Below, in pieces: positions 133 through 7,315 of a stretch of DNA of 7,315 bases. The first letter of the stretch is position 1. The number at the start of each line of letters is the position of its first letter. The stretch is taken from the IMG/VR virus record IMGVR_UViG_2778261512_000020, positions 1-7,315 of that record; one strand, given 5' to 3'. Position numbers and translations under genes: made by a program. The notes beneath the pieces were generated by a model. It had not been told where the DNA came from and ran no database searches. It was given only the letters and a program-made list of their open reading frames with translations. This stretch comes from a virus (lineage: Duplodnaviria; Heunggongvirae; Uroviricota; Caudoviricetes).

Positions 133-269
133 CCATCAATCACCAGATGCTTCGTGCAGCACAGAACAAAGCAGTAATAGCCAGATTTATTGGTGATTCA
201 AAAATGTGGATTGAAGCAAATAAAGCGATGAAATCAGCTATCAACCTTCCGTGGTATCGCAGGAAATGA
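117..269 (+). CDS. kil: Kil-like small protein (putative host cell-division inhibitor), 50 aa
   Basis: ATG 117 lies inside the 3' end of cIII in another frame, as kil does in lambda. Translation is MRNEIAINHQMLRAAQNKAVIARFIGDSKMWIEANKAMKSAINLPWYRRK, stop TGA 267-269. The IA-FIGD-KM segment resembles what I remember of lambda Kil; the call rests mainly on synteny and size. Confidence 0.45.
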   Translation: MRNEIAINHQMLRAAQNKAVIARFIGDSKMWIEANKAMKSAINLPWYRRK

Positions 270-424
270 GTTTTACAGATAACTGGTCAGACGAAGAATT
301 CATTCGTCAGATGAAAGAATTAATCGGTAACGAAGGAGATATTCATGTCACTTGCAACCACAGTGAAGGAGAGCAAGTTACAGAGACGCATGTACACGCA
401 GAAAGCTCTCTGGTATCGCCATAA
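266..424 (+). CDS. Hypothetical small protein, 52 aa, at the position where lambda has gam and P22 has arf
   Basis: ATG 266-268 overlaps the kil stop (ATGA, TGA 267-269), with AGGA at 261-264. Translation is MSFTDNWSDEEFIRQMKELIGNEGDIHVTCNHSEGEQVTETHVHAESSLVSP, stop TAA 422-424. It is the only open frame in this interval. Confidence 0.4.
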   Translation: MSFTDNWSDEEFIRQMKELIGNEGDIHVTCNHSEGEQVTETHVHAESSLVSP

Positions 425-4606: not shown

Positions 4607-4650
4607 GCGTGTAATTGCGGAGACTTTGCGATGTACTTGACACTTCAGGA
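4600..4650 (+). promoter_or_regulatory. pI (int) promoter region with cII-binding tetrad repeat TTGC-N6-TTGC
   Basis: TTGCgtgtaaTTGC at 4605-4618 is the direct-repeat architecture of cII-activated promoters (pRE, pI, paQ). It sits just upstream of and overlapping the xis start (4631), as in lambda, where the pI transcript starts inside xis so Int is made without Xis. Confidence 0.65.
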
Positions 4651-4849
4651 GTGGAACGCACGCCAGCGACGCCCAAGAAGCCTTGAAACAGTTCGTCGAT
4701 GGGTGCGCGAATGCAGGATATTCCCTCCTCCGGTTAAGGATGGAAGAGAGTATCTGTTCCACGAATCAGCGGTAAAGGTTGACTTAAATCGACCAGTAAC
4801 AGGTAGCCTTTTGAAGAGGATCAGAAATGGGAAGAAGGCGAAGTCATGA
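4631..4849 (+). CDS. xis: Excisionase Xis, 72 aa
   Basis: Translation MYLTLQEWNARQRRPRSLETVRRWVRECRIFPPPVKDGREYLFHESAVKVDLNRPVTGSLLKRIRNGKKAKS matches lambda Xis as I recall it. The 3' end overlaps the int start by 23 nt, as in lambda. Confidence 0.95.
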   Translation: MYLTLQEWNARQRRPRSLETVRRWVRECRIFPPPVKDGREYLFHESAVKVDLNRPVTGSLLKRIRNGKKAKS

Positions 4850-5897
4850 GCGCCGGGATTTACCCCCTAACCTTTATATAAGAAACAATGGATATTACTG
4901 CTACAGGGACCCAAGGACGGGTAAAGAGTTTGGTTTAGGCCGAGACAGGAGGATAGCAATCACTGAAGCAATACAGGCCAATATTGAGTTATTTTCAGGA
5001 CACAAACACAAGCCTCTGACAGCGAGAATCAACAGTGATAATTCTGTTACGTTACATTCATGGCTTGATCGCTACGAAAAAATCCTCGCCAGCAGAGGAA
5101 TCAAGCAGAAGACACTCATAAATTACATGAGCAAAATTAAAGCAATAAGGAGGGGGCTGCCTGATGCTCCACTTGAAGACATCACCACAAAAGAAATTGC
5201 GGCAATGCTCAATGGATACATAGACGAGGGCAAGGCGGCGTCAGCCAAGTTAATCAGATCAACACTGAGCGATGCATTCCGAGAGGCAATAGCTGAAGGC
5301 CATATAACAACAAACCCGGTCGCTGCCACTCGCGCAGCAAAATCAGAGGTAAGGAGATCAAGACTTACGGCTGACGAATACCTGAAAATTTATCAAGCAG
5401 CAGAATCATCACCATGTTGGCTCAGACTTGCAATGGAACTGGCTGTTGTTACCGGGCAGCGAGTTGGTGATTTATGCGAAATGAAGTGGTCTGATATCGT
5501 AGATGGATATCTTTATGTCGAACAAAGCAAAACAGGCGTAAAAATTGCCATCCCTACAACATTGCATGTTGATGCTCTCGGGATATCAATGAAGGAAACA
5601 CTTGATAAATGCAAAGAGATTCTTGGCGGAGAAACCATAATTGCATCTACTCGTCGTGAACCGCTTTCATCCGGCACAGTATCAAGGTATTTTATGCGCG
5701 CACGAAAAGCATCAGGTCTTTCCTTCGAAGGGGATCCGCCTACCTTTCACGAGTTGCGCAGTTTGTCTGCAAGACTCTATGAGAAGCAGATAAGCGATAA
5801 GTTTGCTCAACATCTTCTCGGACATAAGTCGGACACCATGGCATCACAGTATCGTGATGACAGAGGCAGGGAGTGGGACAAAATTGAAATCAAATAA
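4827..5897 (+). CDS. int: Tyrosine site-specific integrase Int (lambda-type), 356 aa
   Basis: Translation begins MGRRRSHERRDLPPNLYIRNNGYYCYRDPRTGKEFGLGRDRRIAITEA and ends SQYRDDRGREWDKIEIK, with the catalytic R...HxxR...Y residues (HELRSL, HLLGHKSD, ASQYRDD). It matches lambda Int as I recall it. Stop TAA 5895-5897. Confidence 0.97.
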   Translation: MGRRRSHERRDLPPNLYIRNNGYYCYRDPRTGKEFGLGRDRRIAITEAIQANIELFSGHKHKPLTARINSDNSVTLHSWLDRYEKILASRGIKQKTLINYMSKIKAIRRGLPDAPLEDITTKEIAAMLNGYIDEGKAASAKLIRSTLSDAFREAIAEGHITTNPVAATRAAKSEVRRSRLTADEYLKIYQAAESSPCWLRLAMELAVVTGQRVGDLCEMKWSDIVDGYLYVEQSKTGVKIAIPTTLHVDALGISMKETLDKCKEILGGETIIASTRREPLSSGTVSRYFMRARKASGLSFEGDPPTFHELRSLSARLYEKQISDKFAQHLLGHKSDTMASQYRDDRGREWDKIEIK

Positions 5898-5925
5898 TGA
5901 TTTTATTTTGACTGATAGTGACCTG
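5893..5925. promoter_or_regulatory. Int arm-type binding sites P'3-P'2-P'1 in the P' arm
   Basis: AATAATGATTTTATTTTGACTGATAGTGACCTG is the reverse complement of the lambda P' arm segment CAGGTCACTATCAGTCAAAATAAAATCATTATT. P'3 overlaps the int stop codon. Confidence 0.75.
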
Positions 5926-5932
5926 TTCGTTG

Positions 5933-5945
5933 CAACAAATTGATA
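5933..5945. promoter_or_regulatory. IHF binding site H' in the P' arm
   Basis: CAACAAATTGATA is the reverse complement of TATCAATTTGTTG, which fits the IHF consensus WATCAANNNNTTR. It lies between the arm-type sites and the core, as in lambda attP. Confidence 0.65.
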
Positions 5946-6031
5946 AGCAATGTTTTTTTATAATGCCAACTTAGTATAAAAAAGCAGGCTTCAACGGATT
6001 CATTTTTCTATTTCATAGCCCGGAGCAACCT

Positions 6032-7315
6032 GTGAACACATTTTCAGTTTCCCGTCTGGCGCTGGCATTGGCTTTTGGCGTGACGCTGACCGCCTGTAGC
6101 TCAACACCACCCGATCAACGTCCTTCTGATCAAACCGCGCCTGGTACCTCTTCTCGCCCGATTCTGTCGGCAAAAGAAGCGCAGAATTTCGATGCTCAAC
6201 ACTATTTTGCATCCCTGACACCAGGTGCTGCAGCGTGGAATCCTTCCCCGATTACCCTGCCTGCGCAACCTGACTTTGTTGTCGGCCCGGCGGGTACTCA
6301 AGGTGTAACGCATACCACGATTCAGGCGGCGGTAGATGCGGCAATTATCAAGCGCACTAACAAGCGCCAGTATATTGCCGTGATGCCTGGTGAGTATCAG
6401 GGAACGGTGTATGTCCCTGCTGCTCCGGGTGGAATTACTCTGTACGGTACAGGTGAAAAACCGATTGATGTGAAGATTGGGCTTTCCCTTGATGGGGGCA
6501 TGAGCCCTGCCGACTGGCGTCACGACGTCAACCCGCGCGGCAAATATATGCCAGGTAAACCAGCGTGGTATATGTACGATAGCTGCCAGAGCAAACGCAG
6601 CGACAGTATCGGTGTTCTCTGCTCTGCGGTCTTCTGGTCACAAAACAATGGCCTGCAACTGCAAAATCTGACCATCGAAAACACGCTGGGCGATAGCGTA
6701 GATGCAGGTAACCATCCGGCGGTGGCACTGCGTACTGATGGTGACCAGGTACAGATTAACAACGTTAACATTCTCGGTCGTCAGAACACCTTCTTTGTCA
6801 CCAACAGCGGTGTGCAGAACCGTCTGGAAACCAACCGTCAGCCGCGTACGCTGGTGACCAACAGCTACATTGAAGGGGATGTGGATATCGTTTCTGGTCG
6901 CGGCGCAGTGGTGTTCGATAACACCGAATTCCGCGTGGTGAACTCACGTACTCAGCAAGAAGCGTATGTGTTTGCACCGGCTACGCTGTCCAACATTTAC
7001 TACGGTTTCCTCGCCGTAAACAGCCGTTTCAATGCTTTCGGTGATGGTGTGGCGCAACTGGGCCGCTCGCTGGATGTTGATGCCAATACCAACGGTCAGG
7101 TGGTGATCCGTGATAGCGCCATCAACGAAGGTTTTAACACGGCTAAACCGTGGGCCGATGCGGTGATCTCTAATCGTCCGTTTGCGGGTAATACCGGCAG
7201 CGTAGATGATAACGACGAAATACAGCGCAATCTGAATGACACTAACTACAACCGCATGTGGGAATACAATAACCGCGGCGTGGGTAGTAAAGTGGTTGCA
7301 GAGGCGAAGAAGTAA
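6032..7315 (+). CDS. ybhC: Host outer-membrane lipoprotein YbhC (pectinesterase-fold acyl-CoA thioesterase family), 427 aa
   Basis: GTG 6032 is preceded by GGAG (6022-6025). The N-terminus MNTFSVSRLALALAFGVTLTAC has a lipoprotein signal peptide with lipobox LTAC, and the body has pectinesterase/beta-helix-like repeats. ybhC flanks attB-lambda in E. coli K-12. Stop TAA 7313-7315. Confidence 0.9.
   Translation: MNTFSVSRLALALAFGVTLTACSSTPPDQRPSDQTAPGTSSRPILSAKEAQNFDAQHYFASLTPGAAAWNPSPITLPAQPDFVVGPAGTQGVTHTTIQAAVDAAIIKRTNKRQYIAVMPGEYQGTVYVPAAPGGITLYGTGEKPIDVKIGLSLDGGMSPADWRHDVNPRGKYMPGKPAWYMYDSCQSKRSDSIGVLCSAVFWSQNNGLQLQNLTIENTLGDSVDAGNHPAVALRTDGDQVQINNVNILGRQNTFFVTNSGVQNRLETNRQPRTLVTNSYIEGDVDIVSGRGAVVFDNTEFRVVNSRTQQEAYVFAPATLSNIYYGFLAVNSRFNAFGDGVAQLGRSLDVDANTNGQVVIRDSAINEGFNTAKPWADAVISNRPFAGNTGSVDDNDEIQRNLNDTNYNRMWEYNNRGVGSKVVAEAKK

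Follow-up and report, generated by a model that had tools for sequence, protein, structure and literature searches.

What lies between kil and erf in the early-left (PL) operon of a lambdoid prophage, and what do the small genes at the head of its recombination module contribute? For P22 arf, HK620 hkaM and HK97 gp42/42.1 the molecular role of such genes has been a question since 1991. The window examined here, the whole 7,315-nt stretch of DNA, carries a PL operon of this type on the plus strand. It begins with cIII (1-132) and kil (117-269; Pfam Lambda_Kil, E 1.9e-19), continues through erf, encoding a single-strand annealing protein (526-1131; Pfam ERF, E 2.1e-44), an SSB-like gene (1131-1514), assigned from its translation and from sharing the position of the SSB genes of HK75 and Sf6, and abc2, encoding anti-RecBCD protein 2 (1538-1834; PF11043, E 4e-62), and then passes through Lar-like, Ead/Ea22-like and DUF551 genes to xis (4631-4849) and int (4827-5897). 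A first-pass annotation had placed one 52-aa ORF after kil and, behind it, an untranslated gap of 100 bp at 425-525. Positions 266-515 hold instead two overlapping small genes, termed here ORF A and ORF B, which head the recombination module; the arrangement is not that of a gene and a gap. The locus is otherwise an ordinary and already known one, to which a few unreported details are added, and does not represent a new kind of system.

ORF A comprises 52 codons from ATG 266 to TAA 424, as first described, and its start overlaps the kil TGA stop (267-269) in the sequence ATGA at 266-269. An overlap of the form [AG]TGA between the start and the upstream stop is kept in six divergent loci, no matter whether kil, a cIII-like gene or some other gene stands upstream. 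No Shine-Dalgarno sequence is present at a useful distance, the nearest candidate being an AGGA 1 nt before the ATG, and translation of ORF A would be coupled, by way of the ATGA overlap, to that of kil. The product is acidic (net charge -9, pI 4.4), matches phrog_2123 over residues 1-52 of 52 (E 6.6e-42), is 100% identical to Sf6 gp30 and shares 48 of 52 residues (92%) with HK75 Gp33 (HK75_33). Its family is conserved in 94 phage records, and the locus occurs in 1114 of 5426 complete E. coli genomes (about 20%), a frequency that gives its correct annotation some practical value. ORF A is a real, already catalogued gene of lambdoid phages.

Annotation of the pair is uneven. PGAP often leaves ORF A out, and ORF B was absent in the one PGAP-annotated region that was opened. 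Both ORFs are annotated in Sf6 (gp30 and gp29) and CUS-3, and HK97 has a fused form (gp42.1, gp42). Annotation derived from PHROGs labels both as 'recombinase' in the RefSeq records of Sf6, HK97, HK106 and others (phrog_2123, phrog_1723); for proteins of 52-56 aa this looks like guilt by association, and recombinase activity has no support in the present analysis. Searches of Pfam, NCBIfam and PDB sequences returned nothing meaningful for ORF A or ORF B, and literature searches on gp42.1, HK97 gp42, the phrog identifiers and WP_000010966 found nothing further.

Conservation of ORF A is confined to its first 20-25 residues or so, a module (MSFTDNWSDEEFIRQMKELIGNEGD, 266-340) that is delimited by alignment, DNA variants, an excess of pS over pN and AlphaFold2 (AF2) prediction. 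Divergent loci recovered by protein search (an Enterobacter phage, Pseudocitrobacter, Salmonella phage BIS08P22 and HK140) keep the motif MS[FI][TA]D.W[ST][DE][DEK][EA]F[IV]R.M at only 60-73% nucleotide identity, and synonymous change exceeds non-synonymous change at this N-terminus (pS>pN) in most of the comparisons, those with the most divergent loci included. W7, F12 and M16 are invariant in every locus examined and I13 and R14 nearly so; the motif-based DNA scan itself fixes several codons, which makes the invariance of D5, W7, F12 and M16 there partly circular, and these four positions were therefore judged from the loci found by tblastn (L005, L095, L098 and L099). Across codons 2-17 of 28 distinct DNA versions, variable columns number 13, 9 and 3 at codon positions 3, 1 and 2, respectively, a count that is also partly circular since part of the sample was retrieved by the motif pattern. 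AF2 predicts a single helix at residues 9-19 and, at low confidence, disorder elsewhere. It is this N-terminal helix of about 20 residues that is probably the active part of Gp33-type proteins.

The remainder of ORF A, a variable acidic tail (341-421) with an AF2 pLDDT of about 50, extends over the beginning of ORF B, which is read in a different frame. Within the overlap amino-acid identity is 0.16-0.32 in the A frame, with pS below pN, vs 0.42-0.73 in the B frame. When B was resampled synonymously in four lineages, an open A frame of the observed length was expected by chance with P 0.4-0.65, and selection keeping a long A frame open across the overlap was rejected on this result. The Glu-Gly codons 23-25 of ORF A (..GNEGD..; GSEGG in the Enterobacter phage) read GAAGGAG, the Shine-Dalgarno sequence of ORF B, so that part of the apparent conservation of ORF A at this point reflects the translation signal of B.

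Two variants of the ORF A region may be mentioned in passing. A Salmonella Chester allele (P0036, seven contigs) encodes a 66-aa ORF A in which EFIRQMK stands three times in tandem (MSFTDNWSDEEFIRQMKEFIRQMKEFIRQMKELIG...), by a 21-nt tandem triplication within the conserved helix at the equivalent of about 296-316 in the window. In Erwinia phage 59 a 49-aa gene before the ORF B homologue (L004 2355-2504) ends ..DFDFIRALYEM.., which resembles the ORF A core DEEFIRQMKEL and lies about as far from the start of B; judged by this likeness, the gene may be a remote relative of ORF A.

ORF B (345-515) has 56 codons, is shifted by +1 in frame against ORF A, overlaps it by 80 nt and is 100% identical to Sf6 gp29 (= HK97 gp42, phrog_1723). 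Its initiation signal is a perfect AAGGAG at 333-338, 6 nt before the ATG at 345, and its TGA stop (513-515) is separated from the erf ATG at 526 by 10 nt (516-525; the whole junction spans 513-528). The supposed gap at 425-525 is thus mostly the 3' two-thirds of ORF B. Comparison with the Enterobacter phage (L099) and a Pseudocitrobacter prophage (L095) gave, over 425-515, an amino-acid identity of 0.73-0.80 in the B frame vs 0.28-0.55 in the two remaining frames, and in the B frame the divergent loci show far more synonymous than non-synonymous differences. These selection tests are based on independently found divergent loci, B being 100% identical in the 80 loci of the first viral-contig scan; a scan of genome contigs with the B alignment used a narrow pattern and yielded eight. 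These substitution patterns show ORF B to be under purifying selection; together with its start and junction layout, its free-standing relatives and the HkaM profile match described below, they identify it as a real gene. An SD-like sequence precedes the ORF B start in 9 of 9 loci compared, and the spacer from ORF B to the annealing-protein gene, whether of Erf or Sak4 type, is 7-10 nt in 7 of the 9 tabulated. In Pseudocitrobacter, which carries a further distant homologue, the listed start of the annealing protein overlaps B; reassigned by eye, it gives a spacer of about 11 nt.

Relatives matching ORF B over its full length are found in Erwinia phage 59 (48% identity), in Yersinia similis (52%) and in HK629, in each case as a separate gene directly in front of one for an annealing protein. 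The family is narrow, with 22 matches among 1.84 billion representative proteins in an exhaustive HMM search. Profile-profile comparison of ORF B-type with HK620/HK629 HkaM-type sequences (hhalign 99.15%, E 3.9e-19, 55 columns) places ORF B in the HK620 HkaM family. HkaM (NP_112046; HK629 gp41) shares with ORF B its length class, a basic hairpin, the C-terminal PF and the position before an annealing gene, at an identity of about 35%; it differs in preceding Sak4 and in following kil directly, with no ORF A between, whereas ORF B here precedes erf. HkaM was called an orphan of unknown function by Hutinet et al., who found it dispensable for Sak4/SSB oligo recombineering (PMC5928155).

ORF B is basic (+5.6, pI 10) and is predicted by AlphaFold2, at pLDDT 91, to form a helical hairpin (helices 7-27 and 30-51) followed by a free C-terminal tail ...FLGPCPF; a Foldseek search of this model against the PDB returned generic helical hairpins only (E > 1). 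Within the C-terminal motif ..E..N...FLG..PF, E43, F50, P55 and F56 do not vary among 22 sequences, the most distant of which have 34% identity. ORF B and its 21 aligned relatives end, after a flexible segment, in a Pro-Phe carboxyl terminus like the tip of SSB proteins (..DDDIPF; ..NDYPPF in the HK620 SSB), and the module's own SSB-like protein likewise ends in PF (..DDSIPF). Unlike SSB, ORF B lacks both an OB fold and an acidic stretch leading up to the PF, and the likeness amounts to two residues; it is only a lead for mimicry. Sak4 has been shown to need the SSB tip from its own SSB (PMC5928155).

The company kept by ORF A was surveyed in 120 viral contigs carrying its N-terminal motif. 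About 67 of them have a 52- or 56-aa ORF A, an overlapping ORF B and an Erf gene. In 50 the ORF A form is of 35 aa, ORF B is missing, and the genes that come next encode an acidic protein of 103 aa and a RecT-type protein; in six, ORF A is 51 aa long and its ORF B is of HkaM type. Linkage to Sak4 was seen in L005 and in the Pseudocitrobacter (L095) and Enterobacter phage (L099) loci. ORF A thus travels with three unrelated recombinase types (Erf, Sak4 and RecT), which points to a host target rather than to a particular recombinase. The 35-aa ORF A of HK140-type phages consists of the motif and an acidic tail. Neither Abc2 nor Gam was found within 2.6 kb of the RecT-type modules on those contigs with enough flanking DNA. 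In the HK140 record (L098) the 35-aa homologue at 1201-1308 is unannotated, and the 103-aa acidic protein at 1286-1597, which has no Pfam match, is followed by RecT.

The position of ORF A is the one at which lambda has gam and P22 has arf, as the first-pass annotation had pointed out, and ORF A is the positional counterpart of both. The same annotation saw no likeness to Gam, and none was found here: the gam slot in lambda also follows kil, but ORF A has no Pfam match to lambda Gam and an hhalign probability against it of 0.3%. Identity with Gam was accordingly rejected for want of sequence or profile similarity. T7 gp5.9 is, like ORF A, an acidic protein of about 50 aa. ORF A differs from Gam and gp5.9 in that only one short helix is predicted for it.

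Functional information comes from the homologue in HK75. A July 2026 preprint reported that HK75 Gp33 alone triggers toxicity of P2 OLD as strongly as the whole recombination locus, that OLD defence senses the loss of RecBCD, and that the RecBCD inhibitors Gam and gp5.9 also trigger it; its authors' hypothesis is that Gp33 represents a new inhibitor, or manipulator, of RecBCD (bioRxiv 10.64898/2026.07.10.737580). Measurements of OLD triggering cover the Gp33 proteins of HK75 and HK446 (10.64898/2026.07.10.737580). These proteins (= Sf6 gp30, CUS-3 ECRS218_0052 and the N-terminal part of HK97 gp42.1) are encoded, like ORF A, with ATGA coupling to kil, and the HK75 locus has, like the window, an overlapping downstream ORF. 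According to the published primers, the OLD-triggering gp33 clone is exactly the ORF A CDS and cuts HK75 ORF B after 30 codons; since ORF B is truncated in it, the OLD trigger is ORF A. HK75 Gp33 and ORF A differ in their last eight or so residues (AESSLVSP in the window, AAGVNVSPEGRS in HK75) because the overlapping ORF B differs in HK75.

The HK75 record (L097 1580-1750) contains no annotation of ORF B, so the 'rec locus' construct of the preprint holds an extra gene and its 'gp33' construct a truncated one. More generally, as ORF B overlaps the OLD trigger and is mostly unannotated, constructs and deletions made in this region affect two proteins at once.

By triggering OLD as Gam and gp5.9 do, Gp33 makes an anti-nuclease role for ORF A plausible by analogy. 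The earlier suggestion of an accessory recombination or anti-nuclease function agrees in this respect with the Gp33 result; the specific connection to Arf that went with it is weak, as set out below. The explanation favoured here, and considered fairly probable as a whole, is that the locus holds two overlapping genes, of which ORF A disturbs RecBCD-related DNA-end processing and ORF B is a hairpin protein of the HkaM family. The functional part of ORF A would be its N-terminal 20-25 residues, forming an amphipathic helix around W7, F12, I13, R14 and M16, with a disordered acidic tail behind it. From the Gp33 experiment it is inferred that ORF A would interfere with the way the host processes DNA ends, and the likeliest means would be binding to RecBCD or imitation of DNA there. 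It would thereby protect phage DNA ends and recombination intermediates, and the disturbance would be what OLD-type defences sense. ORF B, for its part, would use the strong ribosome-binding site that it has within ORF A and would pass ribosomes on to erf, 10 nt downstream. Against this explanation it can be said that the module already carries Abc2, a known modifier of RecBCD, that ORF A of the window differs from HK75 Gp33 in the last residues, and that HkaM could be dispensed with in Sak4/SSB oligo recombineering.

A different role would be that of an accessory factor specific to Erf, an equivalent of Arf which stimulates annealing by Erf rather than acting on a host nuclease. P22 Arf resembles ORF A in being small (47 vs 52 aa) and very acidic (-11 vs -9) and in heading an Erf module in the PL operon, the two occupying the same operon position, and it reads FSDEEFI where ORF A, at the same N-terminal position, reads WSDEEFI, giving a shared motif [FW]SDEEFI. 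A weak match was obtained between the PHROG of Arf and ORF A (E 0.037), and a protein 90% identical to ORF A (P0049) is named 'accessory recombination function protein' by one database source. Against these likenesses, no homology is detectable beyond about 10 residues. All relatives of P22 Arf carry PF17585, which ORF A does not match at E<=1, nor do any of 10 members of its family at E<=10. The Arf core ..EEVEQQINLAAERQN..W.EF.G, present in 16 of 16 Arf sequences, is absent from the ORF A family, and comparison of the two profiles gave an hhalign probability of 2.7% (P 0.017) over 18 columns around SDEEFI. P22 arf, moreover, overlaps erf directly, whereas in the window ORF B separates ORF A from erf.

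ORF A is not demonstrably a member of the Arf family, since PF17585 and the Arf core are lacking and the profile-profile comparison is not significant; so far as sequence can tell, ORF A appears to be a positional, and perhaps functional, analogue of Arf. For Arf itself, mimicry of DNA has been proposed (PMC9836394; PMC12315714). The occurrence of the same N-terminal module before recombinases of RecT and Sak4 type argues against a cofactor specific to Erf, and HK75 Gp33 triggers OLD without Erf. An Erf-accessory role is for these reasons judged unlikely.

Rather than acting separately, A and B could be parts of one device, in which acidic A would block or re-programme RecBCD. The basic hairpin B would dock, by its invariant SSB-like Pro-Phe tip, in SSB-tail-reading pockets of either the phage annealing protein or repair enzymes of the host, and A and B would act as a complex. 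Such a complex would explain why natural fusions of 82-83 aa keep the conserved part of each. In the HK97 record (L001 1795-1803) an added C after 393 and an added G after 399 fuse A to B, giving gp42.1 of 83 aa; this two-nucleotide insertion, found in 1 of the 86 loci with this DNA, could be either a sequencing artefact of the 1990s or a genuine allele. The allele P0021, which lacks A396 and has G398T, likewise yields an 82-aa fusion (L100 1501-1749, E. coli GCA_040214815.1 and further contigs); it is indexed in 36 database blocks, and 24 NCBI contigs with it were read. Positions 393-399 are thus the site of two independent fusing alleles, both of which retain residues 1-43 of A together with the conserved C-terminal part of B, beginning at about residue 18-20. 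Several other 82-aa fusions, with different junctions and most of them confined to between one and three contigs apiece, may have arisen as errors of assembly. The natural fusions indicate that fusion is tolerated, and hint at a functional link between A and B. The single device is nevertheless given a small chance.

It might also be held that ORF A has no protein function and serves as a relay frame, carrying ribosomes from kil to ORF B and erf. This would suit the want of a usefully placed SD (the AGGA lies too close to the ATG), a tail that is unconstrained and no longer or shorter than chance gives, and the frequent omission of ORF A by PGAP. It does not suit the N-terminal amino acids kept through synonymous changes at 60-73% nucleotide identity, nor the persistence of the 35-aa ORF A where B is absent, nor the phenotype given by the ORF A CDS alone, as HK75 Gp33, under a foreign promoter and SD. 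A mere relay is consequently regarded as improbable to a marked degree.

That A and B are a single gene, with the 82-83-aa fusion its real product, made by +1 frameshifting in the overlap or lost by a mutation that split the frame, is a suggestion invited by the HK97 record, by the one-nucleotide deletion in P0021 at the same spot and by the further 82-aa fusions in databases; the shift from A to B is, in addition, always +1 in four divergent lineages. The split arrangement, however, is found in 85 of the 86 loci, and most fusions other than these two are confined to the few contigs already noted. B has a strong SD and an ATG of its own and stands alone in HK629, Yersinia and Erwinia phage 59, just as A stands alone in HK140-type phages; that each has a start of its own and is found apart from the other counts against programmed frameshifting being the usual mode. 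The A frame is unconserved in the overlap, where simple inspection showed no slippery site or stimulator, and RNA folding of 300-440 gave nothing above background (z = -1.0). A single gene is accordingly very improbable.

Finally, the proposal of the first-pass annotation that 425-525 might hold a regulatory element, whether a promoter, a terminator or a structured RNA, deserves next to no credence, having had nothing in its favour beyond the missing ORF in the frame followed by that first reading: ORF B, which is under purifying selection, occupies the stretch, and scans of it found no promoter-like or terminator-like site, no Rfam match and no unusual RNA folding energy (z = +0.68).

Some further features of the module and of the window's end can be added. 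The SSB-like protein (127 aa) has at its C-terminal end ..YDDSIPF, the signature tip of SSB proteins; it gave no match in a Pfam search and weak NCBIfam SSB matches only (E about 0.05-0.07). Residues 146-200 of Erf (961-1128) match, at 51% identity (E 1e-15), the C-terminal end of a Sak4-like ATPase encoded by Erwinia phage 59 (L004 3376-3540), so that an unrelated recombinase core bears the same tail domain. By eye this C-terminal domain of 55 residues is also present in the Erf proteins of P22, HK75 and Yersinia and absent from Sak4 of HK620 type. After int, a gap of about 130 nt (5898-6031) is followed by an ORF with a lipoprotein-type signal sequence (6032-7315) that runs off the end of the window. 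The ORF at 4827-5897 looks like lambda Int and that at 6032-7315 like E. coli ybhC, the neighbour of the lambda attachment site; given the adjoining ybhC-like ORF, the end of the prophage and its attachment site would probably lie within 5898-6031.
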